This document shows positions 2,821 to 31,053 of a stretch of 64,000 nucleotides of DNA, piece after piece. Below the pieces are notes generated by a model. The model did not search any database, was not told the DNA's origin, and saw only the letters and a list, made by a program, of their open reading frames with translations. The stretch is from Patescibacteria group bacterium (GTDB lineage Bacteria; Patescibacteriota; Microgenomatia; UBA10105; UBA927), in NCBI GenBank assembly GCA_041753515.1, contig JBGSUE010000045.1, forward strand, positions 2,027 to 66,026, given 5' to 3'. The position numbers and the translations under genes were made by a program. Every line of letters starts with the position of its first letter. Positions within the stretch are counted from its first letter, which is position 1.

Positions 2821-3270
2821 TTATTCTTGCTGGCTAAAGGTAATTTCCGGATCAGGATCAGATATTTCAAAATCCGGATTAATAAAGCCAGTTAAAAGGT
2901 TCATTTTCCAAGCACAATCAGGATACAGGGAATGAAGAGAAGTCAGTGTCTTTCTGTCCATGGCAACAATACAAGTCGTACATCTGGCTGTTTCCGGGTC
3001 AATCGGAGTAGATATATGGCCGGACATATCTATATTGTGATGTTCTAACCATACCATAAATGGCTCTCTCAAATCCGGTGGATATTGATAAATTCTGTCA
3101 AACAAAGGAGGTACAGGATCATCGGGTGCCACACCTTGGATCCTTCTGGAAAAAGCAATGTATTGAGCTTTAAGTCCATATTCAATGAGTTTGTAATTCG
3201 TGTAATATGCAGCCAGCGGAGCCCGTATAATATCTCCCCTGTCAACATAAACGATAGTTTTAAGTTTCAT
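2821..3270 (-). CDS. low-molecular-weight phosphotyrosine phosphatase / ArsC-fold protein with Asp in place of the P-loop Cys
   Basis: N-terminal IVYVDRGDIIRAP aligns to the LMW-PTP P-loop V-C-x-G-N-x-C-R-S-P with C to D; C-terminal DPDPE matches the DP-loop region. Confidence 0.5.
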   Translation of the reverse strand: MKLKTIVYVDRGDIIRAPLAAYYTNYKLIEYGLKAQYIAFSRRIQGVAPDDPVPPLFDRIYQYPPDLREPFMVWLEHHNIDMSGHISTPIDPETARCTTCIVAMDRKTLTSLHSLYPDCAWKMNLLTGFINPDFEISDPDPEITFSQQE

Positions 3271-3345
3271 ATAAAGATGTAATTTACAATTTTCATGTGC
3301 GTATTATATCAAAAAGACGTTAAAAACAGTTTGTACACCTTCCAA

Positions 3346-3362
3346 TTTCGTCCCAACAGGTG
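3346..3362 (-). promoter_or_regulatory. conserved upstream motif copy 2 (TTTCGTCCCAACAGGTG), with TATAAT (from GATATAATAC) downstream on the minus strand
   Basis: Same motif family as 2484-2499 and 4623-4638. Confidence 0.35.
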
Positions 3363-3484
3363 AAAAAATTGTAAACCTAATTGTCAAGTAATTTGTACAC
3401 CCGGATTATTTTCAAAAAAGTATGTGAGATCAATGAAGTGTTCGAACATGATCCGGTACGGGGTACATGTATTTCAATACTGTA

Positions 3485-4561
3485 TTAACGCTTTAATCCT
3501 TGTAGAGCTTTCTTTACGAATTTTCCGAATTTCCGGTCTTTTACTCTTTTCTCCAATTCGGTCATTTTATAAAATTCAGATTCTTTTTTTAATTTAATAA
3601 AATTCCGATATTTATATTCGTCAAGTCTATTTTCTTTCACAGCCTGTATCACTGCACAACCTGGTTCACTGGTATGTGTACAATCGGAAAATTTACAATC
3701 ATGGGATAATGTACCGATTTCATCAAATACATGAACAAGTCCCGTATCCGATTCGGAAATTCCTACCTCTCTCGTTCCAGGATTATCGATGAGTAACCCT
3801 CCATTATCCAAAAAATACATTTCCCGTGTGGTCGTTGTGTGTTTTCCTCTTTCAAGAGTTAAACTAATTTCCCTGGTCTTGATTTCGTCTTTTCCAAGTA
3901 GTTTATTAATTAGCGATGATTTCCCGACTCCTGATGATCCCAGAAAACAATAGGTTTTCCCGGGGATGATATACTTTTTAAGTTCCTGGATTCCATTGTC
4001 AGAAATAATACTGGTTGTAATAATGTCAATATCGTTAAACCTGCTTTTTATCTGATTAATCCTGAAATTCAAATCGTTTTCCGAAATCAAATCAATCTTA
4101 TTAAGAATTATTGCAGGTTTCACCTTTCCTTCTTCTACGAGAACTAAAAATCTTTCGAATCGATTCAGATTATAATCCCTATCCATCGACTCTGTAATGA
4201 ATGCAGTATCAATATTTGTGGCAATTATCTGATTATCCTGCTTATTACTGTATTTCTTTTTCAGCACAGTACGTCTGGGAATAATCTTGCGGATAACAGC
4301 TTGTTTTCCGGTTAGACTTTCAAATATTACCCAATCACCGACAGCAGGAAAGTCTTCCCTTTTTGTTGCGATAAACATCTGTTTTCCCGTTATTTTTGCT
4401 ACATATTCATTTCGATCCTTATCTATAATCCGATAGGCTTCCTTATATTCAGCAGTTACTCTGGCAATGGGATAGCTGTCCAGTCCCAGTGTCTTTCTTG
4501 CTGTTTCAAAAAATTCACCATACCCTAGATCTTTCAATTTTATATTCGTTGTTGATTCCAT
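3485..4561 (-). CDS. rsgA: ribosome small-subunit-dependent GTPase A (circularly permuted GTPase)
   Basis: GSSGVGKSSLIN P-loop after the DxxG-type order, C-terminal zinc-finger cysteines (CKFSDCTHTSEPGC), OB-fold N-terminus. Confidence 0.9.
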   Translation of the reverse strand: MESTTNIKLKDLGYGEFFETARKTLGLDSYPIARVTAEYKEAYRIIDKDRNEYVAKITGKQMFIATKREDFPAVGDWVIFESLTGKQAVIRKIIPRRTVLKKKYSNKQDNQIIATNIDTAFITESMDRDYNLNRFERFLVLVEEGKVKPAIILNKIDLISENDLNFRINQIKSRFNDIDIITTSIISDNGIQELKKYIIPGKTYCFLGSSGVGKSSLINKLLGKDEIKTREISLTLERGKHTTTTREMYFLDNGGLLIDNPGTREVGISESDTGLVHVFDEIGTLSHDCKFSDCTHTSEPGCAVIQAVKENRLDEYKYRNFIKLKKESEFYKMTELEKRVKDRKFGKFVKKALQGLKR

Positions 4562-4622
4562 ATATAAAATTATTACAGGAGATTATACCAGAAAGCTAAA
4601 CGGAAAATTATACTGTTCCAAT

Positions 4623-4638
4623 TTGGTCCCATCACATG
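4623..4638 (-). promoter_or_regulatory. conserved upstream motif copy 3 (TTGGTCCCATCACATG) with two TATAAT boxes between it and rsgA
   Basis: TTCCAATTTNGTCCCANCANNTG consensus shared by the three copies. Confidence 0.35.
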
Positions 4639-4705
4639 ATGAATTCACATAACACGTAATAATGGCGCTTGATTGCATTCAGTATATCTGAAGGATAGAC
4701 ACCCG

Positions 4706-5011
4706 TTATTTGACGGTTTTCACTACTTTATCAGCAGCGGTTTTCACGGCAGTAATCATATTTTTGGCTTTTTCCTGTCCTTGGCTGACTTTTTCCGTAA
4801 CCGTGCCTTTCACTTCGTCTACCTTTTCTTTAGTATCATCTATCGCCTGTTCGATTTTTTTCCGGTTCTTTTTATTTGACAACGCCGCAACTCCGGCAAT
4901 TCCAACGGCTGCCGCTCCGACTACCGCGCCAACCACGGCAGCAGCAATGGGATTGACACCTCCTTTGTGAACGTCTGATTTTTGTTTATTTGTGTCTGTC
5001 ATATGTTTCAC
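4706..5011 (-). CDS. YtxH-like small membrane-anchored protein (Gly/Ala-rich TM plus Lys/Glu-rich coiled coil)
   Basis: PIAAAVVGAVVGAAAVGIAGVAAL helix followed by a charged repetitive tail. Confidence 0.45.
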   Translation of the reverse strand: MKHMTDTNKQKSDVHKGGVNPIAAAVVGAVVGAAAVGIAGVAALSNKKNRKKIEQAIDDTKEKVDEVKGTVTEKVSQGQEKAKNMITAVKTAADKVVKTVK

Positions 5012-5031
5012 CTCCTCATCTGAAGATGCGT

Positions 5032-5391
5032 CTACAGTAATAACGATGCTTCATTTAAAATTGTACCCCATTGTATTATAAGTTTTGACCATTGTGCCTG
5101 ATCGGCGACTCCTTCGTGAAATTCCTTTTCAAGACCGTCAAACTGATCGGAAAATGAATTGAAATGGTCAGAAAATTTCGGCGGTAAAGGGAAAGTTTTC
5201 AGTGCATTCACATTTTTTCTGGTCAGTTTCAGATATAAACTGATTCTATGGGTTTCTTTGTAAAAACAAGTTCGGCTCCATTTGCCGATCTGATTGAGGT
5301 TATCAACGGTATCAATCAGGATACTTTCCTGATTTTTCAATGAATAATTACTGGATGTACTTTTAATGTTTATATATATACTATACACCAA
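5032..5391 (-). CDS. hypothetical protein
   Basis: 119 aa ORF, no motif recognised. Confidence 0.3.
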   Translation of the reverse strand: MVYSIYINIKSTSSNYSLKNQESILIDTVDNLNQIGKWSRTCFYKETHRISLYLKLTRKNVNALKTFPLPPKFSDHFNSFSDQFDGLEKEFHEGVADQAQWSKLIIQWGTILNEASLLL

Positions 5392-5670
5392 TCATGCTCA
5401 GTAATCCACAGATGTTTAGAAAATGAATATACAGCAATTGAAAAGATGATTATTTCTTTTTACTTCTTTCATCCAATATTTTTAAAGCCGCATCTTCACC
5501 ATTTTTATACGAAGCAGAATATTTTGGATCATTCTGAGCGAATTTTGCCATATTTTCCGCGGATAAACGTTCTTTATCAGACAATACCTTAAATGACCCT
5601 AATGTTTTTAAAAACGCGTAGACAGATGCACCAATTTGTTCAAACATAAAATTTTATGCTCACACATTTT

Positions 5671-6375
5671 TTACAACACGGATTTACTGGTAAACCCGGG
5701 CGGTTCGGCGTCGATATTACGGTTAAGTTCATCAATCCGCTCCGGAAGTTGAGTAAATTTTCTGATAAACCACTTCGCTCCCAATTTTTTAAAATCTTCC
5801 TCTGTCCGAAGCCCTGACTCAATTGATGCTATAAAATGAACACCGGCCGCCCTGCACCACTGGACATCCATAAACGCGTCCCCGACATAGACCATTTCAC
5901 TCATCGCAACATCGAATTCCTTAATAGGCAGCAGAAACACTCTCGGATCCGGTTTTTTATATCCGCTTCTCTCCTGATAGAAAAATGCGTCAATCACCGG
6001 CATAAGGTTTGATTTATCAGAAATCAGATATTCGACCTCGCAATGCTGGCGTGAGGTCTGGATACAGACTTTAAAACCAGCCTCCCTCAAACCCCGCAGG
6101 ACTGACAGATTTTCATCCGGTATATGGTCAAATTCACCTTTATCAATATGTTTTTTTGAAACTCCTGAAAAAAGGCTCATGAATTTTTCCGCGTCTATTC
6201 CCGGTATCCGTTCGGTTATCGCATCTTTGAGCGGTTTTCCCCAATTTGCCTGATGGATATCCCTGGTCATCGGTTCATACTCCATGATTGCCGCTATTTC
6301 ATTTTCCAGGTGAAAACAGGATTCTTCGGACAACACAAGCGTGTCATCAAAATCAACCAATACAAGCTTGATCAT
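5671..6375 (-). CDS. HAD-superfamily hydrolase
   Basis: N-terminal VLVDFDDTLV (DxDxT motif I) and a downstream VGDAxxD-type motif. Confidence 0.8.
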   Translation of the reverse strand: MIKLVLVDFDDTLVLSEESCFHLENEIAAIMEYEPMTRDIHQANWGKPLKDAITERIPGIDAEKFMSLFSGVSKKHIDKGEFDHIPDENLSVLRGLREAGFKVCIQTSRQHCEVEYLISDKSNLMPVIDAFFYQERSGYKKPDPRVFLLPIKEFDVAMSEMVYVGDAFMDVQWCRAAGVHFIASIESGLRTEEDFKKLGAKWFIRKFTQLPERIDELNRNIDAEPPGFTSKSVL

Positions 6376-18530: not shown

Positions 18531-18794
18531 ATGGCATGGTTCTGCTATATTGTGGAATGCAGTGACGGATCACTGTATACAGGAATTACACTGGACCTTA
18601 AAAGACGGGAAGACGAACACAATACGGATGATAAAAAAGGTGCAAAATATACCAGATATAAACGTCCGGTAAAAATCGTGTATTCCGAAAAATTTCAGAC
18701 ACAATCCCAAGCACGGATAAGAGAAGCAGCAATTAAGAGATGGCCGAAAGAAAATAAGGTAAAATTGATAATGAAAAATAAAATGGGCCGCTAG
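18531..18794 (+). CDS. GIY-YIG nuclease family protein (YhbQ/UPF0213-like)
   Basis: YIVECSDGSLYTGIT ... KRREDEHN GIY-YIG core; TAG stop lies inside the tRNA-like sequence GGGCCGCTAGCTCAATGG. Confidence 0.75.
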   Translation: MAWFCYIVECSDGSLYTGITLDLKRREDEHNTDDKKGAKYTRYKRPVKIVYSEKFQTQSQARIREAAIKRWPKENKVKLIMKNKMGR

Positions 18795-18835
18795 CTCAAT
18801 GGTAGACCCGGCAGCTGCCGGGCTTTTAAGCGAAT
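18785..18835 (+). other. tRNA-like 5' fragment (acceptor plus D-arm-like GGGCCGCTAGCTCAATGGTAGA, then palindrome CCCGGCAGCTGCCGGG and CTTTTAAGC)
   Basis: Resembles the 5' half and anticodon loop of the downstream tRNA-Lys but has no matching 3' acceptor strand. Confidence 0.35.
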
Positions 18836-19114
18836 ATGTTTCAAGTTTATGTAATTCGGGCAAGTACGAATGGGAAAATATATATCGGGCAAACAGAAGA
18901 TATCGCTAAAAGATTGGATCAGCATAATAATCGCAATTTCGACAAACGTGCATATACAAAACTAAACGGAAAAGATTGGAAGATTGTGTATACTGAAGAA
19001 TATCAAACAAGATCTGAAGCTTTAAAACGAGAAAATGAACTCAAATCACACAGAGGAAGAGACTTTATTAAAAATTTACTTTCGGGGGTCGGTAGCTCAA
19101 CGGTAGAGCAGTAG
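18836..19114 (+). CDS. GIY-YIG nuclease family protein (YhbQ/UPF0213-like), second copy
   Basis: VYVIRASTNGKIYIGQTEDIAKRLDQHN; TAG stop falls at positions 8-10 of tRNA-Lys. Confidence 0.75.
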   Translation: MFQVYVIRASTNGKIYIGQTEDIAKRLDQHNNRNFDKRAYTKLNGKDWKIVYTEEYQTRSEALKRENELKSHRGRDFIKNLLSGVGSSTVEQ

Positions 19115-19158
19115 CCTTTTAAGCTATTGGTTCAGGGTTCGAATCCCTGCCGACTCAC
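19086..19158 (+). tRNA. tRNA-Lys (anticodon TTT)
   Basis: Hand-folded cloverleaf: acceptor GGGTCGG/CCGACTC, D-stem GCTC/GAGC, anticodon loop CTTTTAA, T-arm CAGGGTTCGAATCCCTG. Confidence 0.85.
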
Positions 19159-20927
19159 AAATTAGCATGTTTTACCCCGAACTTATCAGCAAGAAGTTGC
19201 TGAATAAGATATTGTGGTAAATTAAGTTGAATATCAATCTTGTCAGGTATTAACTGATCCTTCTTTGGTACACCAGCAATGCGATCCTTGTCGGTCTTTG
19301 GTCGGGCATACACAACAACTTGATCTATGATCATATGGATGAGTTCATACAATTCTTTTTCATCCTTTTCTGCTTTATTCAAGGCTTTCTCGTATTTTTT
19401 GGCATAAAGCTCCAGACTATACACATAGCCCTTTGATAAAGACTCCTGAGCAAGCTCAAAATCAATCTTTTTAATGCTTTCATTGCAATTACTTTCTTGT
19501 TTTTTTAATTCAGCAATTTGCTTGTTCAGTTCTTCAATATCAATATGTCCATGTGCGTGTTGATTGAGGATATTAGTCTTGATCTTGGGTATGGCATTAA
19601 GTATCTTAGTCCATCGCTTTCGTTCTTTTTTCAAACGATCAATGTTAATGCGAGATGAGTCTAACCCTTTCTGATATTCGTAAGTAGCTTTGGGATTGCT
19701 TAAAAGTTGCTTAACAAACTCAATAACATATTCTTCTAACTCATCTGCTGGAATAGGTATTACTGGACAGTTGTTCTGAGGGTATTTCTTCTTGTTTTTT
19801 CTGTTGCATTGGTAATAATAGGAAAAGTCTAATTTTTTACCTACATATTTTCTTGCTCCTGTCCAAGACCATTCGGATTCTTTTGATCCTCCCAGACTCC
19901 TGCAATGGTCGCATTTTAATAGACCAGATAGCAAGTAAAAATGTTGGTCAACCTTTCTCTGGGCAAGAGTTCTCCTTGCAGAGACCTCCTTCAATATCTT
20001 TTGAGCCAAATCAAACAATGGTTGCGGGATTATTGGCTCATGTTTATATGGAGATAATTTCCACTCACCCTTTGGTAAACGCTTACTTTTAACTGTCTTG
20101 TCGTAGTAGCGAGTACCGATATACACCTCATCCTCCAAGATCGATCTCACTGTTTCCATACGCCAGAAATGTATTGGGTTGGTCTTGCGAGGTTTTCCCT
20201 TGCGCTTGTTGTTGTTAATCGCTGAGATTTCAGGACTAACCATTTTTTGCTCCTGGAGAGTGTCTGCAATTTTCTGTGGACTGAGTCCACCTGTTGTAAA
20301 TAATCCAAAAATCATTTCTACAACATCAGATTCTTCCTTGAGAATTACCAAGTGTCCATTTTCGTCCTTGTTGTAACCATAAGGAGCGTTAGCCCCCATT
20401 AACTTTCCTTGTTTTATCGCTTCTTCACGACCACCTCTGGTTCTTGCCAAGATATTTTCTCGTTCAAGTTCTGCAAGGACGCCCATAATGCCAAGCATAG
20501 CCTTACCAAATGGGGTAGAAGTATCTATACTTTCAGTTGCCGAGAGAAACTCAATTTTATTTTCTTCAAAAAACTCAACAGTATCCATCAGTATCCGAAG
20601 TTTTCTGGCAAAACGATCTATCTTGAAAACTGCCACTGTATCAAAAGGTTTGTTACCCTTGGGAGCGAGAAGATAATCCTCCATCAATTTTCTGAAACCT
20701 GGTCTTTCTTCAAGTTTTACAGTTCCACTAATGTCATCATTATAGACGTGGTTTTCACCAGCAAATACAAATGATGGTTGCCCACTGTTCATATTTAACT
20801 TCGTTTTCAATAATGCTTCCACTGCTGATCTCTGAACATTAGGCCCAAACTTTTCTGCCTGATCATCTGTTGAGACTCGAATGTAAAAGGCAACCCTTCG
20901 TGGGATTTCTTGCTGTTTTCTATCCAT
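19155..20927 (-). CDS. large serine recombinase (serine integrase type)
   Basis: N-terminal resolvase catalytic domain (AFYIRVSTDDQ), recombinase domain and Cys-rich zinc ribbon (CDHC..CNRKNKKKYPQNNC), 590 aa. Confidence 0.9.
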   Translation of the reverse strand: MDRKQQEIPRRVAFYIRVSTDDQAEKFGPNVQRSAVEALLKTKLNMNSGQPSFVFAGENHVYNDDISGTVKLEERPGFRKLMEDYLLAPKGNKPFDTVAVFKIDRFARKLRILMDTVEFFEENKIEFLSATESIDTSTPFGKAMLGIMGVLAELERENILARTRGGREEAIKQGKLMGANAPYGYNKDENGHLVILKEESDVVEMIFGLFTTGGLSPQKIADTLQEQKMVSPEISAINNNKRKGKPRKTNPIHFWRMETVRSILEDEVYIGTRYYDKTVKSKRLPKGEWKLSPYKHEPIIPQPLFDLAQKILKEVSARRTLAQRKVDQHFYLLSGLLKCDHCRSLGGSKESEWSWTGARKYVGKKLDFSYYYQCNRKNKKKYPQNNCPVIPIPADELEEYVIEFVKQLLSNPKATYEYQKGLDSSRINIDRLKKERKRWTKILNAIPKIKTNILNQHAHGHIDIEELNKQIAELKKQESNCNESIKKIDFELAQESLSKGYVYSLELYAKKYEKALNKAEKDEKELYELIHMIIDQVVVYARPKTDKDRIAGVPKKDQLIPDKIDIQLNLPQYLIQQLLADKFGVKHANL

Positions 20928-21057
20928 ATTTCTTTACACTTGCAACAAGAGATAAGATTAAGTTCCTGGTGGGTTATCTCTATTTAGAGTATTATACTAA
21001 TTTTAGCGAGATTACACAAAGAGTTGAGTGAGGGTTTTGAAGTTATACTCGATAAAA

Positions 21058-21753
21058 TCAACTTGGGACAGGCTGACTAATTACAGGTTTCCCTGAATAG
21101 TCAATTAAAGTTAAGCCATTTTTAGCCAAAATTTCTGCCAATCTTACTTCGGGTGGCCTGAAATCATGGGGAGTATCATCAAATGAAACTGATTCTTCAA
21201 TAATCTTGGTTTTTTCTTCAACCAGTAGGTGTAGGTTATTTCTTCCAATAAAGTCGTTAATGACCTTCATAACAGAGAGGACTGGCGTTACAGAATCGTT
21301 GACGATTTTGAGTGGCATCCCTATCTTTTCTTCTTGCTCCAACGCCTTATCAAGTCGTTTGACTAACTTTGGTAACAGTTTTGTGGACAGGTACTCCATT
21401 TGCTCCAGTGAGGCTTTTTGCAAATCAGATCGTAGTAAGTCCAATTCAACTTCTTGTTTAACGACCAGTGCAATCCGTTTCGTGAGGCTGGCTTTATGAT
21501 ACTTATTCCTGTAATTCTCAACTGCCTTGTAACTGGGAAGTTCAACTGCTGGATATTGCTCACAAAGAGCTGCTAAGGCTTTTACTGGAGAAAGTTTATG
21601 AGTAAGAAGCTCATCGAGCTTGGTTCTTACTTCCTGGGGCAAAGCATGGATACTGGACTTAAAACCATCTCGTTTAAGTTGAGTTGCTTTCTGGAGATTG
21701 GCAACTCGGGTGAGATAGAAGTCGTCTTGTGGATTAGTATTTGGATCAATCAT
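21058..21753 (-). CDS. DUF3486-like phage protein (Mu gp27 / small terminase-like DNA-binding protein)
   Basis: LPQEVRTKLDELL...SYKAVENYRNKY pattern typical of DUF3486. Confidence 0.4.
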   Translation of the reverse strand: MIDPNTNPQDDFYLTRVANLQKATQLKRDGFKSSIHALPQEVRTKLDELLTHKLSPVKALAALCEQYPAVELPSYKAVENYRNKYHKASLTKRIALVVKQEVELDLLRSDLQKASLEQMEYLSTKLLPKLVKRLDKALEQEEKIGMPLKIVNDSVTPVLSVMKVINDFIGRNNLHLLVEEKTKIIEESVSFDDTPHDFRPPEVRLAEILAKNGLTLIDYSGKPVISQPVPS

Positions 21754-21848
21754 ATTCGCTTACTTAATTATAGCGAAAATGAGGGGTTTTGATCCATCTA
21801 TTTACAATTACTATCCTTCCATTTAGAAGGCTGCTGACCTGGAAAGTG

Positions 21849-22832
21849 TTACGAAAGCACTTTTTCTTTCAATTGCCCTATTAGTTTTCCCTCAATTTCA
21901 ATTTCACCGCTTTTTAATTGCTCTTGCGTATCAAACTCAGTATCAAATCCAGGTATGTGGATTTTACCATCTGGTTTTGTTCTTCCAGATTTAACCTTTT
22001 TCACCAACTCCGAGGAATTTTGCTTAAACTTATCAGTTCCAATTAAAAGATTTGGGCTAAATGCCATATAAAATGTTCCCCAATCTCCTTCATCAAATAC
22101 AAAAGATGCTCCTGTCAATGCACCAGCCAACAACTCCACCACCATTGCAAGACCAGACCCTTTATATGAACGATCAAACGGAAGAATCGCACCTTTCATA
22201 GCTAATTCTGGATCGGTGGTTAATTCACCATTTTTATCTACTGCGACATTTTCGGGTAACTTTTGACCTAACACCTTTGCCCTAACCAATCCATACCATG
22301 TTATTGCTGATGCAGCCATATCAAAGACGATAGGGTGTTCAATCGTTGGAAAGCCAAATGCGATAGGATTCGTACCATATGCCGGATCAATTCCTCCATG
22401 ATGTAATACTCCTCGTGGAGAACTTGCTGCTACAATTCCTATTAAATCTTGCTGTGCCATTTTTCTGGCATAGTAACTGATTGCCCCGACACTTGAAAAA
22501 GTATTATTTGTACCTACAACAGCAAATCCTTTTTTCTTTGCGATCTCTATTGCCTTATCTGTTGCAACTTGAGCTGCAAGAGGTCCAGCTGCCCCTCCAC
22601 CATCAATTAAAGCTGATAGCTCTGTCTCTTTAATAGTCTTTGGAGGGTATTTTGGTTTTATATCCTGAGCAGGCTCTGAACCAAGTAATTTGAGCAGTCC
22701 TTGAGTGTTTTTCCCTGTAAGTTCTGCGTACAAAAAAACATCAGCAATTTTCTCTGCTTCATCAGCTGAATAGTATTTGCTTGTTAGAGCTTTTGTCATT
22801 AGCTCTCTCAACTTTGAGATTTTTATCTTCAT
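21849..22832 (-). CDS. Ldh_2 family oxidoreductase (malate/L-lactate/ureidoglycolate dehydrogenase family 2)
   Basis: Overall Ldh_2 architecture (~330 aa), GTNPIAFGFP and HGG motifs. Confidence 0.7.
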   Translation of the reverse strand: MKIKISKLRELMTKALTSKYYSADEAEKIADVFLYAELTGKNTQGLLKLLGSEPAQDIKPKYPPKTIKETELSALIDGGGAAGPLAAQVATDKAIEIAKKKGFAVVGTNNTFSSVGAISYYARKMAQQDLIGIVAASSPRGVLHHGGIDPAYGTNPIAFGFPTIEHPIVFDMAASAITWYGLVRAKVLGQKLPENVAVDKNGELTTDPELAMKGAILPFDRSYKGSGLAMVVELLAGALTGASFVFDEGDWGTFYMAFSPNLLIGTDKFKQNSSELVKKVKSGRTKPDGKIHIPGFDTEFDTQEQLKSGEIEIEGKLIGQLKEKVLS

Positions 22833-22870
22833 AGCGTTATTTTATCAGAAAGTGATCCCGTCTGACATAA

Positions 22871-22894
22871 GAAAACCCCTCCATGAAGAAGGGG
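22871..22894 (-). terminator. rho-independent terminator after the DUF4352 gene
   Basis: Minus-strand CCCCT-N9-AGGGG stem followed by TTTTCTT. Confidence 0.5.
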
Positions 22895-22921
22895 CTTTCT
22901 CTTAAAGAACAGGCCTATTCT

Positions 22922-23476
22922 TTACTGTAATTTCACTTTTGCACCTTTGCCAAATAATGAACCTTTGACAAGAAGCATAGGATTACTAATATCTGATGGT
23001 AAATCAAATACTAAGTCTCCTGTGACAGAAAGTGATGGTTGAACCTGTTGCAAGAACAGATCAACATTTCCCTGAGCCATACCTTTGGCTGTTTGACCCT
23101 CGATTGAGCGTTCAAACTCACGACCTTGATCATCAGTCACTTTTGCCATTGAACTGTCAAAAGTAGCTGTCTTGTTACCTTTATTTTCTATCTTCAAAGT
23201 CACAACATAGAATGTGCCTTGTGAGTTCTTCTGGGTGTATGAATTACCCAGAGACTTTGCAGTTTCAACATTGGTAACTGTGAAAGCTAAATCACCATCT
23301 TGGACTACTTCATTAAGTCCATATTGTTTTTCGCTTTCAGCCTTACTACCTCCATTGGAAGCAGAATTACTGTTGGAGTTAGATGATTGATTGTCTGACT
23401 TTCCAGCTCCAGCAATTGCTCCGATAACGATAAGTACAACGAAGCCGATAAGACCCCATTTTAGGATTTTCTTCAT
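22922..23476 (-). CDS. DUF4352-like membrane-anchored protein
   Basis: N-terminal TM, Ser/Asn-rich linker, C-terminal beta domain (LAFTVTNVETAKSLG...TFYVVTLKIENKGNKTATF) typical of DUF4352. Confidence 0.6.
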   Translation of the reverse strand: MKKILKWGLIGFVVLIVIGAIAGAGKSDNQSSNSNSNSASNGGSKAESEKQYGLNEVVQDGDLAFTVTNVETAKSLGNSYTQKNSQGTFYVVTLKIENKGNKTATFDSSMAKVTDDQGREFERSIEGQTAKGMAQGNVDLFLQQVQPSLSVTGDLVFDLPSDISNPMLLVKGSLFGKGAKVKLQ

Positions 23477-23523
23477 AATGTGTTCACCCCCCTTCGAGTT
23501 AGGTTACTCATAATTTGTTCCTT

Positions 23524-23610
23524 TCTATTTTTTTAGAAAATAGATGGTTATAAGCGTAATTATAGCAGAAAACACCCATTGTAGTGCGTGGATTAGTATG
23601 GGTGTTTTTT
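23524..23610. promoter_or_regulatory. divergent control region with 8-bp palindrome TCTATTTTTTTAGAAAATAGA and an ACACCCAT/ATGGGTGT hairpin plus T-tract immediately upstream of the XRE gene
   Basis: Perfect palindromes between divergent genes; candidate operators or attenuator. Confidence 0.4.
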
Positions 23611-23623
23611 ATGTAATAAGAGC

Positions 23624-23881
23624 ATGAAACCAAAAACGATCGAAAGATCACAGGAAAGGAGAGAGGAAAAGAAGAAGTTTGGTTCTAAAATTGGCAAGCA
23701 TCTGAGAAAGATTAGAGAGTCAAAAAATATCAGTCAGGAAAATCTTTCTTTGGCTGCTGGCTACTACCGAACTTATGTAGGTAAGATTGAGATGGGTAAC
23801 TATTCTCCCAGTATGCACACAATTTGGAGACTATCGCATACGTTGGGTATGTCACTCGAGGACTTCTTCAAAGGATTTTAA
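23624..23881 (+). CDS. XRE-family helix-turn-helix transcriptional regulator
   Basis: HTH_3 pattern ISQENLSLAAGYYRTYVGKIEMGNYSPSMHTIWRLSHTLGMSLEDFF. Confidence 0.8.
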   Translation: MKPKTIERSQERREEKKKFGSKIGKHLRKIRESKNISQENLSLAAGYYRTYVGKIEMGNYSPSMHTIWRLSHTLGMSLEDFFKGF

Positions 23882-23882
23882 T

Positions 23883-24389
23883 CTATTGGCTTTTTGGCAT
23901 ATTCCGATGTATATCAATAAACCATCGGCTAAACTCATCTCTTAAATTTCTGATCCAATTAGCAATATCTTGTCCTTCACTCATCAATTCCATAAAGCGT
24001 TTATCGTAGTATTCTTTCTGAAAATGGAATACTCCATTTCGATAGCGTCTAAGCAATTCAACATTTGGAGATTTTAGTAGTGAATCAATTTTAGGATCAG
24101 TCAATTTTAATTCTTGCCATCCTTCAATAAGCACATAGAAAGTTCCATACCAAAGAGACATATAAAGAAAAGTATCAATGCCATTTTCAGTTTTTGGTAA
24201 TTCCACAGCAACAGGTTTCGACTCTGCCCTTTTAAGAATCTCATCGAAATGAACTCTCATTCTATCTGCCCAAATAAAATATCTATGCAGTGTGATAATT
24301 TCAGGTGTTAATTGGTTTTTGGTATCAGGATTTTCTGACATATTCGTATTATATCGAAAATCAGAATTGAGATTCATCTCTTTCCTCAA
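23883..24389 (-). CDS. hypothetical protein with HEPN-like R-N-x3-H motif (possible abortive-infection RNase)
   Basis: LLRRYRNGVFHFQ fits the Rx4-6H HEPN signature; helical; convergent with the XRE gene. Confidence 0.35.
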   Translation of the reverse strand: MRKEMNLNSDFRYNTNMSENPDTKNQLTPEIITLHRYFIWADRMRVHFDEILKRAESKPVAVELPKTENGIDTFLYMSLWYGTFYVLIEGWQELKLTDPKIDSLLKSPNVELLRRYRNGVFHFQKEYYDKRFMELMSEGQDIANWIRNLRDEFSRWFIDIHRNMPKSQ

Positions 24390-25002
24390 AAAACTGATAC
24401 AGCTCTAAGCACGCTTTCTTTGTTTTATCCTCCCCAGCAATATGCTTTTTATTCTTTATTCTTGATCCTTCTCGAAAGAACTCATTATCATCTTTGCCTA
24501 ATTCACGGCCTCGTTCAGTATGCTCATCAATGGCATATTCAGGTATCTCAGGCTTCCATCCTTGCTCTTTGCGTTTCAGAAGCACACCACCGAGATAATC
24601 AGTGTGACGTGATTTCTTGCTCCGAGCCATGTACGAAATGATGAACCCAAGAACATTGTTATCAACTTGGATCATTTTCTTTACCTTATCTTGAGCCAGC
24701 AGAGAAGAATATGTACTACTTACAAGAATCATTGCTTCTGGATTTGCCAGTCCAATATCTTCACCAGCGATAACTTGTAATCTTCTGAAACAGTATCGCC
24801 AAAATCCTGATTCATTTAGTTCAAATGCCCAATATGAAGCCATCAACTCATTACCTCTGCGGATTTCCTTTTGTAAAGCACTGACTATCTCATCTAACTT
24901 ATATCCATTTTTTGTTCTCAGTTCAAAACCTTTATACTTTTCAACCTTTTGTTCTTCGGTTTCTGTTGGTGTGTTTAATAATTTTTGTTGCTTTGTTTTC
25001 AT
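24361..25002 (-). CDS. hypothetical protein (island cargo)
   Basis: 213 aa, no recognised motif. Confidence 0.4.
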   Translation of the reverse strand: MKTKQQKLLNTPTETEEQKVEKYKGFELRTKNGYKLDEIVSALQKEIRRGNELMASYWAFELNESGFWRYCFRRLQVIAGEDIGLANPEAMILVSSTYSSLLAQDKVKKMIQVDNNVLGFIISYMARSKKSRHTDYLGGVLLKRKEQGWKPEIPEYAIDEHTERGRELGKDDNEFFREGSRIKNKKHIAGEDKTKKACLELYQFFEERDESQF

Positions 25003-25097
25003 AGTTTAGCTGTCATTATTTGCGACAGGCTGTCGCATATTTAATGGTTAATTTTTTAGGTGCTGTAATGAGAGTTATAGCTGGTTGAGTCATATTT

Positions 25098-26021
25098 TTA
25101 GTCAAAATTGATGGTATTAAATGTCTCGTAAAATCTTGGTAAATCAGCTTTCTTTTTAAGATTGTCATTGTAGACTTGAAGCATTTCTAAACTTTTGTGT
25201 CTGGTGTACTGGGCAACTGTAAGAATGTCACCTTTGTATGCCTTGATTAACTTGGTAGTGAAGTAGTGACGAAAGCCATGAACTGTTTTGTCAATCTCAA
25301 GGCTTCTAAGAATCGGGTTTATTAGGCAACGTATTGATTTGGTAGTTAAACGATGGTTTCGGCTGTTATTGCTGGTACTGGTGAATAACGCACCATCAGC
25401 AATTTTGTATTGCCTAATGTAATCTTTGAGGGCTGCAACAGCTACTGGATGTAAATCAATGATTTCTTTGTCATCCTGTCCCTTACCTTGAATAAAGGCT
25501 ACCTGTGAAACAAGATCAATTTCAGTTACATCCAGGCGAACTATCTCAATTTGTCTAAGTCCTTGCAGAATCAGGAGACTTAAAAGGGCTTTGATTCGAC
25601 TGGTGGAAAGATTAGAGTTTTGGGCTTGAATGTAGCTGAGGATTCTTTGTACTTCTTCCTCTGAAAAGCCATCTTTTTTATGTTTTCTGCTTTGTTGAAA
25701 GGATTTTACGTTTTGTGTAATGTCTATTGGCAAGTACCCTTGACGATGTAATTCTTTGCAATATACCCTTGCCACAATTAAATACTTATTCTTAGTGCTG
25801 ACAGCAAAATCAGTCCGTTGAGACAGGTGTCGCTTATATTCTAAGTAGCTATGCTTGGTAAATCCCTGTTTTTTAATGAAATCAATAAAACTGCCAATTC
25901 TTGAATAGTATTCTCGCCTGGTGTTTTCTGAGATATCCAAATGAGCGAATACCTGTGCGTTCCAATCAATAGGTACTAAATTATTTTCCATAACCATCTC
26001 TGCTCCAAGCAAGGAGTTCAA
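25098..26021 (-). CDS. tyrosine recombinase / phage-type integrase
   Basis: C-terminal catalytic HGFRHYFTT (HxxR) and terminal Tyr region TVAQYTRHKSLEMLQVY; N-terminal SAM-like domain. Confidence 0.85.
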   Translation of the reverse strand: MNSLLGAEMVMENNLVPIDWNAQVFAHLDISENTRREYYSRIGSFIDFIKKQGFTKHSYLEYKRHLSQRTDFAVSTKNKYLIVARVYCKELHRQGYLPIDITQNVKSFQQSRKHKKDGFSEEEVQRILSYIQAQNSNLSTSRIKALLSLLILQGLRQIEIVRLDVTEIDLVSQVAFIQGKGQDDKEIIDLHPVAVAALKDYIRQYKIADGALFTSTSNNSRNHRLTTKSIRCLINPILRSLEIDKTVHGFRHYFTTKLIKAYKGDILTVAQYTRHKSLEMLQVYNDNLKKKADLPRFYETFNTINFD

Positions 26022-26315
26022 ACAATTTGTAACTATTTCTGGTGGAGTTATTGATTCTTCTGATGATTTCTGCTTGCGAGAGAAGTGTTGAAGATTTTCT
26101 GATTTTTCTTTTCCTAATTTCCTTACTTTTTATTGCCATATCAATCTAATTAACGATTATTTGTTGTATATGTATATGATACCTGAGCTCAACCTCTTGT
26201 CAAATTGAGGGTATCCAGATGGATTGATTTGATAGGCCATAGCGTATTTTCCAGAATGGTATCTGTTTTTTGGAAGAATAAAACTTCGTTAAGACTTTTC
26301 TGATAAAATATAATA

Positions 26316-26780
26316 GTGAAATCAGTCAATATGACAAATAATAATCTTTCGGTGGTTGACGCAATCAATCTTTCTTCTATTGAGTTACTTGTACCGCTAA
26401 TTGATAAGTACCCAGTACTGAAGAACATTTTGAATAATAGTAAAAGCAAAAATCCTTCAGATGACTGGGATTATTTTATGACCGCAGCAGGATCAGGGAT
26501 TGTTTTGATCTCAAGCGAAACATACAAAGGCGAGCATAATGAAGTGAAATCCAGAGCTTCTGAAATATACAAAGATATACATAGAGCAATTGAGGACTTT
26601 ATTGCCTTCATGAACAAAAATAAAGCCACTGATAAGCTGATCCCTCCCACGATCGGCTTATGGGTACTTTGGAACATCAAGCAAGAAGAACCTTCCTACG
26701 ATGAAATGAAAGAACTTGCACCTGTAATAGGTAATTTACTTATTAAAATTATCTCTGACTGGAAAAGCAGCAGAAGTTAG
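26316..26780 (+). CDS. hypothetical protein, first gene of a five-gene island operon
   Basis: 154 aa; tightly spaced with the downstream genes. Confidence 0.4.
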   Translation: MKSVNMTNNNLSVVDAINLSSIELLVPLIDKYPVLKNILNNSKSKNPSDDWDYFMTAAGSGIVLISSETYKGEHNEVKSRASEIYKDIHRAIEDFIAFMNKNKATDKLIPPTIGLWVLWNIKQEEPSYDEMKELAPVIGNLLIKIISDWKSSRS

Positions 26781-26803
26781 TAATTCTTTGGAGGTAGAAG
26801 TAA

Positions 26804-27952
26804 ATGAAGTTTGGAATTAGAACGCCATCGTTGAAGCGGAGAATTGCAGCCAGAACATCCTGGAAGCGAGTAGTAAGGCATAATTTGGGCTTGAAAGCTC
26901 CCAAGGGGATGGGGATATTAACAAACCCGAAGAAAGCTCTGTATAACAAGGTATATAATAAAACAACAGTGAGTGTAGATAATTTGCTGAAAGGGCATCC
27001 ACCTATACCAGCAGTACCATCTACTTCTCATAAACCAAATATGGAAGATCAACACCAATCAGGCATTCAAATAAACAACACAGGAAGCATTATCAGAAGC
27101 TCAAGCAAGGCTTTGACTGTCACCAGTAAGAACTTTCACAAACTTCGACAGGAGATCACGGATATTTACAACCAGAGACAGGAGTTAATTAAAAAACTCA
27201 ACTCTGCAAAGACTAAATTGTTTCTTCTGACTACAGTACATTTCGGGAGCTATCTGGTAATTATTGGTTTCTTCTACAAGAAAATTGCTGAATCAAGAAA
27301 TACTCAGCAACAGATTGTCAAAGATTTGGAAAAGCAGGTTTCAGAAACCTTCGTTAACCTTACGTTTGCTGACAAATCCCAACTGGAAAAAAGCTGGCTG
27401 AATTGCATTGATACCTTTAAGGAACTTATGGGTAGCGAAAAGATTTGGGACATTACTTACGCAGAGGGGGTTAACAGAGCACAAGCACGTACAGTAGCTC
27501 AGACAGCCACCAAGAGAACCTTGATCCCCCGCACTGAACGAGAGATTGAGTTTATCAAGAGTGACTTGCCTCATTTGCTTCTTCCCAACGCTAATGGACC
27601 AGACGTGTTTTTCTATCCCACATTCTTACTACTGTTCAAAGACAATCAGGAGTTTGGTATTTTTGATCTTAAAGAAATAACAGTTGCTATGAAACTTTCA
27701 GGATACATTGAAGAAGAAAGCGTTCCAAAAGATACTGAGATCATTCAGCACACATGGAAAAAAGCCAATAAGGATGGCTCTGGAGACAAGCGATTCAAAG
27801 GGAACTATCAGATTCCCATAGTGAAATACGGAGATATGACGATTGAAGCAGAGGGAGGACTTGAAGAATCATTCATGTTTAGTAATTTCGATGCTTTTGG
27901 TGATTTTGCAAAAACCTTTGAATACCACGCCTCATTATTGCGCAAGCTCTAA
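26804..27952 (+). CDS. hypothetical protein with basic DUF4236-like N-terminus and one central TM helix
   Basis: MKFGIRTPSLKRRIAARTSWKR... then LFLLTTVHFGSYLVIIGFFY TM, ~200 aa C-terminal domain. Confidence 0.45.
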   Translation: MKFGIRTPSLKRRIAARTSWKRVVRHNLGLKAPKGMGILTNPKKALYNKVYNKTTVSVDNLLKGHPPIPAVPSTSHKPNMEDQHQSGIQINNTGSIIRSSSKALTVTSKNFHKLRQEITDIYNQRQELIKKLNSAKTKLFLLTTVHFGSYLVIIGFFYKKIAESRNTQQQIVKDLEKQVSETFVNLTFADKSQLEKSWLNCIDTFKELMGSEKIWDITYAEGVNRAQARTVAQTATKRTLIPRTEREIEFIKSDLPHLLLPNANGPDVFFYPTFLLLFKDNQEFGIFDLKEITVAMKLSGYIEEESVPKDTEIIQHTWKKANKDGSGDKRFKGNYQIPIVKYGDMTIEAEGGLEESFMFSNFDAFGDFAKTFEYHASLLRKL

Positions 27953-27954
27953 CT

Positions 27955-28713
27955 ATGTTTGGCATCTTCAATAAAACGAAATACTCAAATGACGATGACG
28001 CAATAACAGCACTCATGCGAATCTCCAGTATGGGTTTTGGTGGTGAACAAGATTTTGAGAAAAATAACATGCTCAAAGTATTGGAAGAAGTTGAAGGTTA
28101 TGCCAGTAATCTTCAAAACCCTAAACTTGGCTATTGGTTGGGTATTGCTTGGAGAAACTTTACTGCATGGCACATCAGGGGCGATGAAAGAAAAGAATAC
28201 CTTGAAAAATCAGTTTACTACTACGATAAAGCACTGGAACTTTCCAAAAATAGATTACCTATCCAATTACCCCTCGAACAACGTCATGATGCTGAATATC
28301 TTGATCAAATAGATATTGCAGGGGATTTAGGTGACATGCTGGTAAACGAAGTGCCTATTAGAGATTTAGATCGTGCTGAGAAAGTATTGCAGTTTGTTTT
28401 TGACAACACTGATGAATACGAGCCTTGCCTTTGTGCTTATGCTGAACTCTTTTACAAGCGTGGCAATTATCTCAAGAGTGCCGAGATAGGCTTAGATATC
28501 AGCGACAGGTGTGCAAAATCACCTGAATGGAGAGACGATCCACCCCCTGCTCCATTGGGAATTGTAGGGAGCGCATATAGAGCCTTAGCAAAACAGGCAA
28601 AAAAAGCAGGCAGATCAAATGAAGCGATTGAGATATTTCAGAAAATGAAAGATTTGAAGGTTGCTTCTGAAAATGATTTGAAGATACTTGAACGACTGCA
28701 ATCAGAAAAATAA
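27955..28713 (+). CDS. hypothetical helical (TPR-like) protein
   Basis: Starts 3 nt after the upstream stop; repeated amphipathic helix pairs (YLEKSVYYYDKALELSKN). Confidence 0.45.
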   Translation: MFGIFNKTKYSNDDDAITALMRISSMGFGGEQDFEKNNMLKVLEEVEGYASNLQNPKLGYWLGIAWRNFTAWHIRGDERKEYLEKSVYYYDKALELSKNRLPIQLPLEQRHDAEYLDQIDIAGDLGDMLVNEVPIRDLDRAEKVLQFVFDNTDEYEPCLCAYAELFYKRGNYLKSAEIGLDISDRCAKSPEWRDDPPPAPLGIVGSAYRALAKQAKKAGRSNEAIEIFQKMKDLKVASENDLKILERLQSEK

Positions 28714-28762
28714 TCTTATAACACTTACTCCAGGCTGGCTCATCTCTTGATATAATCAGAGC

Positions 28763-29587
28763 ATGAAATTAAGCGATGGTGCATCCGAAAGAATAAAAGA
28801 AAAATTAGATAAACTCAAAACTCGAGTTGGACATAGAAAACTCATTTCTGACATTCTGTTTCCTTCAAAACAGAAAGAACTAAATCGACAAGTTGTCAAT
28901 CAATATGCGGATAACTTGGACAAGAAGATAAAAAGGATCGAACCACTAATACGATCGTTGAAGTCACATACTGACTACATTGGCGATCCAGACAAGTTTG
29001 TTGCAGCTTATTTGCTCATAGGCAAAAGTTATACCAGTCTCAAGGCGGTAACTATCTTGGTAAGACAAGGCTACTCATTTCAGATAGTTGAGCTTGTTAG
29101 ATCATCAATGGAGTCACTGAATCTCTCTGTGCTCTTTTTTGAAGATGGACAGGAGGAGTTATTAAAAAAGTGGTTTGAAGGCGAAATTGTTGGCAATAGA
29201 AAGGCTCGTGAGGTACTTAATGCTGCTGTTAATAAGATGAAACAGGATATGGGAGACGAACAAGTACCGATGAAAGAAGCGTTGTCTGATGTCTACTCCA
29301 TTTACTCGGCCTACACACATAGCGGATACTCTGCACTGTTTGATTTCATTGACGTTTTCAAAGAAGATTTTGATTTCGAACAATACACACAATTTCATTA
29401 CAGCCGCAAAAACCTTGAATTGATTGATAATCTCTACTTCAATACCTTGCTTGGTCTGAAAAATTACTACATCAGAGCAAAAGACGAGGAAAACTTGGCA
29501 AAGGTCGAGGCTCTGATAAGTAAGGAAGGTGGACAACTTGCAACTCCTGAACAAATTGCTATTGAAATGCAAAGATATAAAAAATGA
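28763..29587 (+). CDS. hypothetical protein (weak Rx4H motif RSLKSH)
   Basis: 274 aa; stop overlaps the next start (ATGA). Confidence 0.45.
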   Translation: MKLSDGASERIKEKLDKLKTRVGHRKLISDILFPSKQKELNRQVVNQYADNLDKKIKRIEPLIRSLKSHTDYIGDPDKFVAAYLLIGKSYTSLKAVTILVRQGYSFQIVELVRSSMESLNLSVLFFEDGQEELLKKWFEGEIVGNRKAREVLNAAVNKMKQDMGDEQVPMKEALSDVYSIYSAYTHSGYSALFDFIDVFKEDFDFEQYTQFHYSRKNLELIDNLYFNTLLGLKNYYIRAKDEENLAKVEALISKEGGQLATPEQIAIEMQRYKK

Positions 29588-30552
29588 ACTGGAAAATAGC
29601 TACAAAAGATGTGAATCCAAACGATCCTAAAATAAAACAACTCTTTGATGAGGCTGTGGATGCTGCGCCTGCTGGTTATATAAAGGCAGATGCTTCGGGT
29701 AAGAATGTCGCAGAAGATACTGTTTCCATGCTTCCCAGAAAGCCAATAAAAGGAAAGTGTCGGTTATGCGGAGAAATTAGAGATTTGACGAAGGAGCATA
29801 TTCCTCCTAAATCGAGTGGAAACAAGAAAAGGCATACAACCCTTACATTTGACGATTGGTTGAGAGACAAATTAGAAGATAACCAAGAAGCAAAGCATAC
29901 TGTTGAGCAAGGTGGTATTTTCGGCTATACCTTATGCAGAAGCTGTAACTCCCTAACGGGCAACCTGTATGGCAATGAGTACAAGAAGTGGGTGGAATTG
30001 GCTAAGAAAAAAATAGATGGCTTCGGAAATGGGATAGTTCCGAAGCTGGACAGTTTAACTGGACCATTTGGTGAGAACTTCACTTTTGGTAGCAAGGAAG
30101 ATGGATCAGTAAAGCCAGGAGCATTTGTACGTCAGGTATTATCTTGTTTGTGTAGTTTAAGTGGTTCATGGAATCTGGCAGAAAGGTATCCAGCCATTAG
30201 ACGTATTACTTTAGAGCAATCAACTGAGCCACTACCTCAAGGAATGGAATTGGGAATGTTCATTTTCTTCGGGCCACGAGTTCGTGTTCATGGGCCACAG
30301 TTAAAAATAGATGCAAAGACTCTGACTTGGCGATGGGTTCAAGAAATAGCTTATTCTCCTTTTGCCTTCCAGTTTGTAATTGCAAGTAATAATCCACAAC
30401 CAGGCTTGGGATTGCTTATTGATAACTTCACTACGTTAAAACCAGAGACAGAACAGTATTATAGTGGCCTTTTGGAAATGGGGTTTGGATGGAGTCCTTA
30501 TCCAGGTGATTACCGATCACAGACTGCTATACGTGCTTCACGCAAGTCTTAG
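29584..30552 (+). CDS. HNH-endonuclease-domain protein with ~200 aa uncharacterised C-terminal domain
   Basis: GKCRLCGE ... EHIPPKSSGN ... LCRSCNSLTGN matches the CxxC..(D/E)HIxP..GG..N..LCxxCN HNH core. Confidence 0.55.
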   Translation: MNWKIATKDVNPNDPKIKQLFDEAVDAAPAGYIKADASGKNVAEDTVSMLPRKPIKGKCRLCGEIRDLTKEHIPPKSSGNKKRHTTLTFDDWLRDKLEDNQEAKHTVEQGGIFGYTLCRSCNSLTGNLYGNEYKKWVELAKKKIDGFGNGIVPKLDSLTGPFGENFTFGSKEDGSVKPGAFVRQVLSCLCSLSGSWNLAERYPAIRRITLEQSTEPLPQGMELGMFIFFGPRVRVHGPQLKIDAKTLTWRWVQEIAYSPFAFQFVIASNNPQPGLGLLIDNFTTLKPETEQYYSGLLEMGFGWSPYPGDYRSQTAIRASRKS

Positions 30553-31053
30553 ACTATGCAGAGCGAGTCAGTGTGTGCAGTTTGTGAAGTGCTGTTTGGT
30601 GTTGAGTCTCAGTTGAGCAAATGTTTACTTGCAGAGATTTTACTGGAGACAGTGGGTTGTTGAAGATAATTTCCTTCTCTTGATATTTTAGCTGCAGCCT
30701 CGTTCCATGGGTATAGTACTGTTCCAGAAGTTCCTCTACTGTCGGTAATTCTTCTGTTTTCAATTCCTCTTTGAGTAAGGAAACCTTTTTCTTCTTCGCT
30801 GACTCCTGTAACCCAGCCAGTAAATCTGGAAGGTTCATTTTTATTTTGGTATTTCCGTCTTTGTTTTTCATTCATACCTATTCTAACAATTTTTCTGTCT
30901 AAATGGTAATGTCGAAACACAAGAGGATACCTGTCATAGTATTCTTGGGGTATAATATACCTGTCAGGGAGTTCCTGGTAATACTCGTTCTCTGACTAAA
31001 AATATAATCTTCACACTTCCGGCTTATGTGCTGATTTGATATCATAGCTTTTT

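Follow-up and report, generated by a model that had tools for sequence, protein, structure and literature searches.

The stretch of DNA analyzed here (hereafter the window) comprises 64,000 nt of contig JBGSUE010000045.1 (positions 2,027 to 66,026 of the forward strand; assembly GCA_041753515.1) from a Patescibacteria group bacterium. Between an intact tRNA-Lys(UUU) gene and a DedA/VTT gene at 31054, the window carries a block of genes that begins, on the strand opposite to the tRNA, with a large serine recombinase (LSR) whose gene runs into the tRNA gene's 3′ end. This gene is followed by genes for a 231-aa protein, an Ldh_2 family oxidoreductase, a DUF4352 protein, an XRE-family regulator, a 168-aa open reading frame (ORF), an MgsA_C-like protein, a Xer-like tyrosine recombinase with a small ORF at its start, a five-gene operon and, at the far end, a small gene that we call gene B (Table 1).

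Table 1. Features of the element and its attachment sites in the window.
Feature	Position	Strand	Remarks
tRNA-Lys(UUU), intact	19086..19158	+	ARAGORN; Rfam RF00005, 74 bits
attL	19127..19188		B arm 19127-19156, crossover AC 19157-19158, P′ arm 19159-19188
LSR, integrated (short) form, 590 aa	19155..20927	-	Pfam Resolvase 1.4e-31, Recombinase 6.7e-20, Zn_ribbon_recom 4.2e-9
231-aa protein	21058..21753	-	tblastn matches in L020, L021, L023, L027, L035
Ldh_2 family oxidoreductase, putative cargo	21849..22832	-	Pfam Ldh_2 6.6e-77; absent from L018
DUF4352 secreted or lipoprotein-like protein, putative cargo	22922..23476	-	Pfam 4.8e-27; L018 copy 85% identical
XRE-family helix-turn-helix (HTH) regulator, putative optional central module	23624..23881	+	HTH_3 7.9e-12; 96% identical in L018
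168-aa ORF	23883..24389	-	No family match; RNGVFH by eye; absent from L018
MgsA_C-like protein, 213 aa	24361..25002	-	Pfam MgsA_C 8.9e-10; phrog_33349 1.7e-25
Xer-like tyrosine recombinase	25098..26021	-	Phage_integrase 2.9e-20; sub-threshold XerA/XerC/XerD
52-aa conserved ORF	25981..26139	-	Overlaps tyrosine recombinase start; HTH-like by eye, no family match
Promoter-like TTGACA-16-TATCAT and 30-nt conserved sequence (26209-26238)	26176..26238	-	Upstream of tyrosine recombinase operon
Five-gene operon, putative cargo	26316..30552	+	154, 382, 252, 274 and 322 aa
Small gene B, 105 aa (MKNK...)	30554..30871	-	At the far end of every relative showing that end; called protein P0128
Putative severed LSR 3′ segment (frame A), 128 codons including the crossover-spanning Ser codon	30609..30994	-	In frame with LSR only after joining
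attR	30965..31026		P arm 30965-30994, crossover AC 30995-30996, B′ arm 30997-31026

The initial annotation had placed at this tRNA gene an integrated island of about 11.5 kb that ended at 30920 and held both a serine recombinase and a tyrosine integrase. Our analysis upholds the island and, by Pfam domains, both recombinases, and an alignment of relatives moves the right end to 30996. Specifically, the ends were set by comparison with related elements in other contigs of Patescibacteria (candidate phyla radiation [CPR]; contigs are given below as L numbers); we found 872 LSR homologs at E ≤ 1e-20 and retrieved genomic contexts for nine of them. With the ends fixed at 19159 and 30996, the element is therefore 11,838 bp long, and we interpret it as one integrative element, belonging to a family that we encountered in Patescibacteria/CPR-type contigs. 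Base composition supports a foreign origin for the island. Its GC content is 0.383 compared with 0.441 outside, and the range over 19–31 kb (0.36 to 0.41, against about 0.44 for the rest of the window) agrees with the earlier remark that the island genes are AT-richer than their neighbors. The tetranucleotide distance to the remaining window is 366 to 392 in the island and 140 to 275 outside it, with sharp steps near 19 and 31 kb. GC content by itself is not diagnostic, as the region at 1–6 kb is as AT-rich as the island yet holds the housekeeping genes for RsgA and a HAD protein.

In addition to its three Pfam domains, the LSR matches the integrase family phrog_95 (5.9e-100) and, in the PDB, the sequences of the TP901-1, Bxb1-like and SPbeta integrases, and its translation contains the nucleophile motif YIRVSTDDQ with Ser19. 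The gene overlaps the tRNA gene by the few nucleotides that had been reported (19155 versus 19158), but it is the stop of the LSR gene and not its start that lies in the overlap, and this stop codon, TGA, is the complement of T71-C72-A73 of the tRNA. When six such junctions were aligned, the tRNA sequences proved unlike one another up to ..C72-A73-C (..CAC), while homology ran from AAATT onward into the LSR gene. At the far end, the near-identity of the window and L018 stops at ..CTCTGAC (30996), past which the two are unrelated, and L021, L027 and L035 break at the same position beside host genes. The only sequence common to attL (..gactc AC aaatt..) and attR (..tctg AC taaaa..) is AC, that is, the discriminator base A73 plus the next base, and no direct repeat longer than 2 bp was found at the element ends. 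The absence of a tRNA 3′ duplicate at the right boundary, already noted in the initial annotation, was confirmed by a repeat search, ARAGORN and Rfam: within 18–32 kb, the latter two detected a single tRNA-like sequence, the tRNA-Lys itself, and no repeat of the tRNA end was present. No duplicate is expected, because a serine recombinase crossover spans 2 bp. The direct repeats earlier seen near 30935-30966 do exist, as two copies of ATACCTGTCA at 30927-36 and 30957-66. We rejected them as att repeats: they represent two coding Asp-Arg-Tyr codon triplets, and the DNA repeat is absent in the closest relative, L018.

The T arm and 3′ acceptor strand of tRNA-Lys form the B arm of attL, and the P′ arm falls within the 3′ coding end of the LSR gene. 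In attR, the B′ arm is host DNA, 57 nt upstream of the DedA/VTT gene. Each element end is an imperfect inverted repeat of the other (15/30 positions in the window and 14–17/30 in three other elements; shuffle p = 0.0002 to 0.012 across the four), with AGTTCnnGGT standing at the same distance from AC on both P arms. The GTTC of the tRNA T loop sits 4 bp nearer the crossover than the GTTC of the P and P′ arms, which resembles the LI integrase, where the motif bound by the zinc-ribbon domain (ZD) is shifted 5 bp inward in attB relative to attP (PMC3783163). Joining of the element ends yields GGGAGTTCCTGGTAATACTCGTTCTCTG-AC-AAATTAGCATGTTTTACCCCGAACTTATCA as the predicted attP, the predicted empty attB reads CAGGGTTCGAATCCCTGCCGACTC-AC-TAAAAATATAATCTTCACACTTCCGG, and the uninterrupted interval from tRNA-Lys to DedA is predicted to contain GACTCACTAAAAATATAATC.

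The same arrangement recurs at a variety of tRNA genes. In every retrieved context with sequence past the LSR gene (LSR identity 45–79%), the LSR 3′ end enters the 3′ end of an opposite-strand tRNA gene by 4–40 nt; the tRNA is tRNA-Lys(ctt) in L021/22, L024 and L035/37, tRNA-Glu(ctc) in L019, tRNA-Glu(ttc) in L020, tRNA-Ile(tat) in L023, tRNA-Val(gac) in L027/28 and tRNA-Gly(tcc) in L033. L023 and L024 are 99.76% identical across 9,906 bp and diverge exactly at the junction into two different tRNAs, which we read as the same element at two sites. Of 120 LSR homologs, the ORF terminates precisely at the junction in at least 54 and continues into a T arm in at least 22; many homologs have T-arm tails (..W..RDSNP, ..NLWERRDSNP) because a C71 in the tRNA lets the ORF read on. 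A protein scan of viral contigs with the LSR returned no relatives. Since the same junctions occur in elements that lack a tyrosine recombinase, and since the attP is of the LSR type, we assign the integrase role to the LSR; the tyrosine recombinase would not have made these junctions. In the proposed reaction, the LSR would recombine attP (the joined element ends) with an attB consisting of the tRNA-Lys T arm, the 3′ acceptor strand and downstream DNA, with strand exchange at the non-palindromic dinucleotide AC. A shared sequence of 2 bp would leave the tRNA intact and duplicate no tRNA fragment. Recognition would act mainly via the T-loop region GGTTCGAnnCC, which is near-universal and stands at a constant distance from A73, making many tRNAs (Lys, Glu, Ile, Val and Gly) usable.

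L036 (11780-21782) has the LSR as in L035 and L037, then a degenerate tRNA 3′ fragment instead of tRNA-Lys and, beyond the LSR junction, a different island with ThsB-TIR, SLATT, McrBC and methylase genes; this site may be a hotspot with stacked elements. L033, a distant family member at tRNA-Gly, shows several iteron-like repeats (..AAGGTnAGGTT..) at 2480-2760, near its presumed far end, where no homolog of the far-end ORF was detected.

When the element ends are joined at AC, the LSR ORF continues in the same frame into a conserved far-end ORF, such that the joined ORF has 718 aa compared with 590 aa in the integrated form. In each of the five elements whose two ends were available (the window, L018, L021/22, with a joined LSR ORF of 694 aa, L027 and L035), the reconstructed attP keeps the frame. 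The far-end part amounts to about 18% of the LSR ORF, and the 590 aa retained beside the tRNA contain all three Pfam-detected domains. Codon differences in the far-end frame are mostly at third positions, with 7 synonymous and 0 non-synonymous between the window and L018 and 11 synonymous and 4 non-synonymous between the window and L021. The start codon of this frame is not conserved, and its junction codon in the window is TAG; in 25 diverse homologs, conservation starts at the crossover-spanning Ser, and the preceding residues are unrelated. The far-end frame overlaps gene B by 55–87 codons across elements, with 87 in the window (30609-30871). Within the overlap, gene B has T at 0 of the 84 positions where T would make a stop in the far-end frame, compared with 32 of 165 elsewhere (pooled p = 6e-7, combined p = 3.5e-4). 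We therefore interpret 30609-30871 as a long dual-coding overlap, in which gene B and the LSR continuation would both be maintained over 87 codons.

Gene B itself, with two database relatives only, clearly has the marks of a real gene. A promoter-like TTACCA-18-TAGAAT with an upstream TG lies at 30880-30909 on the (−) strand, ends 8 nt before the gene B ATG and is almost invariant in DNA across relatives; because of this near-invariance and the 8-nt distance, the transcript is suggested to be leaderless or near-leaderless. The far-end module also occurs apart from an LSR. In L026 (1020-1483 and 9668-10055), the P arm, the LSR continuation frame and gene B were found with no LSR within 10 kb, and a window-like pair of a GIY-YIG gene and tRNA-Lys(ttt) lies 8.6 kb from the module. 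Either a decayed element or an isolated attR-side remnant may be present there.

The sequence statistics thus support well that attP lies inside the recombinase ORF and that integration cuts the gene in two. In this mechanism, the LSR of the circular form would have 718 aa, integration would sever the last 128 codons and leave them at the attR end, overlapping gene B, and the remaining 590-aa LSR would be ended by the tRNA-derived TGA. The long and the short LSR may differ in activity or directionality, and the element would in this way "know" its integration state.

The far-end module also bears on the unity of the island, which we interpret as one composite element and not a tandem pair. Beyond the tyrosine-recombinase module and the operon lie the putative severed C-terminal segment of the LSR, gene B and the P arm of attP; with this module outermost, a single pair of LSR att sites would therefore enclose all that lies between. 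L018, L020 and L023–25 share the order far-end module, variable operon, tyrosine recombinase, MgsA_C, HTH, cargo and LSR (L019 has the shared gene order in rearranged form), and the co-linear architecture of the window was found in four other LSR lineages. Minimal elements of 3.5–4 kb (L021/22, L027–30 and L035/37) share these ends, lack a tyrosine recombinase and consist of gene B, a single cargo gene, a protein of roughly 220 aa and the LSR. The initial annotation had offered either two tandem elements or a composite one; the outermost position of the far-end module and the recurrent co-linear order favor the composite.

Such a composite could have arisen by nesting, with a tyrosine-integrase element (small ORF, integrase, MgsA_C, XRE and variable operon) inserted secondarily into an LSR element. 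The module is indeed missing in the minimal LSR elements, possesses its own conserved promoter-like sequence and 30-nt conserved upstream sequence, and encodes an integrase with a relative (68% identity, 81 aa) that adjoins an excisionase-like gene and a terminase on the IMG/VR contig L038. However, neither direct repeats nor a second 30-nt copy flank the module, its outer edge leaves no intergenic room (1 nt separates the 322-aa gene from gene B), and its position is conserved in five LSR lineages. Any nesting would therefore be old and the unit would now travel as one, and we consider a nested origin unlikely. Much less probable still are two independent elements in tandem at a tRNA-Lys hotspot, with the LSR element proximal and the tyrosine-integrase element distal. 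Tandem arrays at tRNAs are common, two recombinases do occur within the one island, and L036 has a different defense island past its LSR junction; yet the distal end of the block bears the P arm, gene B and in-frame segment of the LSR system, and there is no tRNA fragment or att-like junction between the recombinases. We give the least credence, close to none, to insertion of the island by the tyrosine integrase with the LSR as cargo or invertase. A 2015 survey knew tRNA-gene integration solely for tyrosine integrases (PMC4383910), but a tRNA 3′ duplicate and a direct repeat of more than 2 bp are both absent at the ends, the tyrosine integrase is 6 kb away from the tRNA, and the junction architecture is identical in elements that do not have it.

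Several observations weigh against a split recombinase gene. No empty site, circular junction or fused long LSR turned up in the searches made: a HMMER search of 1.84 billion representative proteins with a profile of the extension returned 33 small stand-alone ORFs and no fusion, a word-indexed search with the LSR extension returned small ORFs only, and a degenerate attP DNA pattern matched nothing in viral contigs and gave two chance, unrelated matches in metagenome contigs. Some integrated copies gain ATG or TTG at the attR junction, and a stand-alone far-end peptide is possible in hosts with such a junction. Conserved codons of gene B account for the shared stop of the far-end frame, which is hence not independent evidence; the B′ arms are poorly conserved; and an AlphaFold prediction of the extension alone (25 sequences) reached a predicted local distance difference test (pLDDT) score of 58, too low to read function. 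The far-end frame could accordingly be an independent small gene, with an LSR of simply 590 aa and an attP just past its stop. All 33 of the 33 database members are small stand-alone ORFs, an internal Met is conserved (..RIGMNEKQ..), several copies acquire ATG or TTG at the junction, and a fused protein was not seen. On the other hand, the mostly synonymous change and amino acid conservation reach ~40 codons upstream of this Met, up to the crossover, the junction codon in the window is TAG, and the first start there, GTG at 30920, has no conserved counterpart in L018, L021 or L023. Moreover, the far-end frame is the LSR frame in 5/5 elements with both ends, and once excised, an LSR cut short at the element end would lack its own stop, which the tRNA supplies. 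An independent small gene is, on balance, improbable. We hold the full explanation, an LSR-inserted composite element at tRNA-Lys with a recombinase ORF split by attP, to be very probable. The further proposal that the recombinase gene is a built-in integration-state sensor, in which only the circle encodes the 718-aa enzyme, and that tRNA T-loop targeting makes it a broad-host-range integrase, is tentative, and we lean slightly against it.

The element shares with phiC31, Bxb1, A118/LI and SPbeta SprA the three-domain LSR enzyme, a short quasi-palindromic attP, the 2-bp non-palindromic crossover and hybrid attL and attR without long repeats. In both the known elements and this one, the shared half-site motif is nearer the center in attB than in attP (PMC3783163). 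Unlike these systems, the target here is the 3′ end of many different tRNA genes, attP appears to lie within the recombinase ORF, the protein would be shortened on integration with its stop borrowed from the tRNA, and the elements carry no phage structural or conjugation genes. In the mycobacteriophages BPs and Brujita, attP lies in a coding gene and integration alters the C-terminus of a regulator, which records the integration state. In those phages, however, a tyrosine recombinase serves as integrase and it is the repressor gene that is cut, whereas here the recombinase itself would be cut. The closest analogy is with the SSV-type "suicidal" tyrosine integrases of archaea, in which attP is inside the integrase ORF, tRNAs are the targets and integration splits the gene (PMC7253208), as we propose for the LSR. 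The SSV enzyme is a tyrosine recombinase unrelated to LSRs, and its split gives two inactive pseudogenes, whereas here the host is a bacterium of the CPR and the 590-aa part keeps the three Pfam-detected domains. As a cargo or defense island with an integrase gene beside a tRNA, the element also resembles Islander-type islands (PMC4383910) and tycheposons (10.1101/2020.12.28.424599), but it has no displaced tRNA fragment and no replication module, and its junction is at A73/C74 and not in the tRNA body. Of 937 tycheposon-type elements, 27 were reported with an LSR, without detail (bioRxiv 10.1101/2020.12.28.424599). In the 2022 LSR attachment-site catalogue, as far as a literature-search term count covers it, the term tRNA is absent (PMC10083194), and the literature searched yielded no account of an LSR gene that its own attP interrupts.

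If our interpretation is true, an LSR family that inserts at the ends of many tRNAs and leaves them undamaged would close this gap and provide the CPR bacteria, of whose mobile elements little is known, with a defined cargo vehicle, possibly for defense genes too. Reading of the T loop and acceptor end would imply a natural landing site in most genomes and could offer genome engineers an integrase with a conserved, multi-copy landing pad. An integration-dependent recombinase length, if true, would be a new and testable directionality control for serine integrases.

The remaining genes of the element fall into accessory, optional and cargo parts. From the gene list of the initial annotation, the Ldh_2, DUF4352, XRE, tyrosine integrase and five-gene operon entries stand, and two labels do not. 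The 231-aa protein, called a DUF3486 Mu-gp27-like protein, has no Pfam match, DUF3486 being absent even at E ≤ 5; it matches the small-terminase family phrog_426 weakly (4e-5; TerS-like N-terminus). Its gene is directly upstream of the LSR gene in most relatives, minimal elements included, making it a candidate accessory or DNA-binding factor. Likewise, no family match was found for a HEPN-motif protein: RNGVFH is visible by eye in the 168-aa ORF, and the 213-aa neighbor is MgsA_C-like. The MgsA_C-like gene always adjoins the tyrosine recombinase gene (synteny in L018, L020 and L023). The tyrosine recombinase shows HxxR and C-terminal Tyr motifs, and its start is probably the ATG at 25997. A second copy of the 30-nt sequence upstream of it, a possible recombination partner, is not present in the window. 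Judging from its distribution among relatives, we regard the tyrosine recombinase, the small ORF, the MgsA_C protein and the XRE regulator as an optional internal module.

We interpret the five-gene operon and the Ldh_2 and DUF4352 genes as exchangeable cargo. The 274- and 322-aa genes of the operon are 83% and 91% identical in L018, and their neighbors are swapped among relatives for an SMC/AAA_21 protein (L018), a methylase (L020) or a caspase-helicase (L023). The 274-aa gene matches DUF5677 below the Pfam cut-off, the 322-aa gene has a weak HNH match, and a weak TPR match also occurs in the operon. PADLOC on ten proteins gave a single weak match (PDC-M65A, E = 0.0012), and no usable result for the operon and the small proteins came from PADLOC, NCBIfam, Pfam to E = 5 or a PDB sequence search. 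The operon is plausibly a variable defense-type cargo slot. An integron was considered and rejected, as the operon gaps, from a 4-nt overlap to 49 nt, are too short for attC sites and the integron-integrase similarity is sub-threshold. On a possible kinship with phage-inducible chromosomal island satellites, the observations are the weak phrog_426 terS match, the XRE regulator and the recombinases. Family scans of the island proteins gave no match to replication genes (primase, helicase or polymerase).

Searches for an empty site started from the flanking genes. In an Obg-anchored scan of GTDB species genomes, the relatives of the flanking Obg (56–63% identity) came from Gottesmanbacteria and other Patescibacteria metagenome-assembled genomes, which places the host in the CPR; these genomes showed no synteny with the window and no tRNA-Lys after obg. 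Exact-protein look-ups led from Obg to a 1.7 kb contig and from DedA to nothing.

Small ORFs for GIY-YIG nucleases (Pfam 5e-14 to 9e-18) were seen at 18531-18794, 18836-19114 and 63624-63890 in the window and at 1594-1833 in L003. They lie directly 5′ of tRNA genes, with stops within the 5′ part of the tRNA (tRNA-Lys at 19086, tRNA-Gly at 63881 and a tRNA-Glu in L003). With a GIY-YIG ORF on its 5′ side and the LSR gene on its 3′ side, tRNA-Lys thus has on either side a mobile-type gene that terminates within it. Overlapped by the end of the first GIY-YIG ORF, the stretch 18784-18832 resembles a tRNA 5′ half (GGGCCGCTAGCTCAATGGTAGA ... CTTTTAAGCG) with a GC palindrome inside; missed by both ARAGORN and Rfam, it may be a decayed tRNA or a duplication from GIY-YIG insertion. 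Outside the island, the AT-rich stretch at 1000-6000 (GC 0.36 to 0.39), with genes for the RsgA GTPase, a HAD hydrolase and a low-molecular-weight phosphatase, has a moderately raised tetranucleotide distance (251 to 275) and is probably native.

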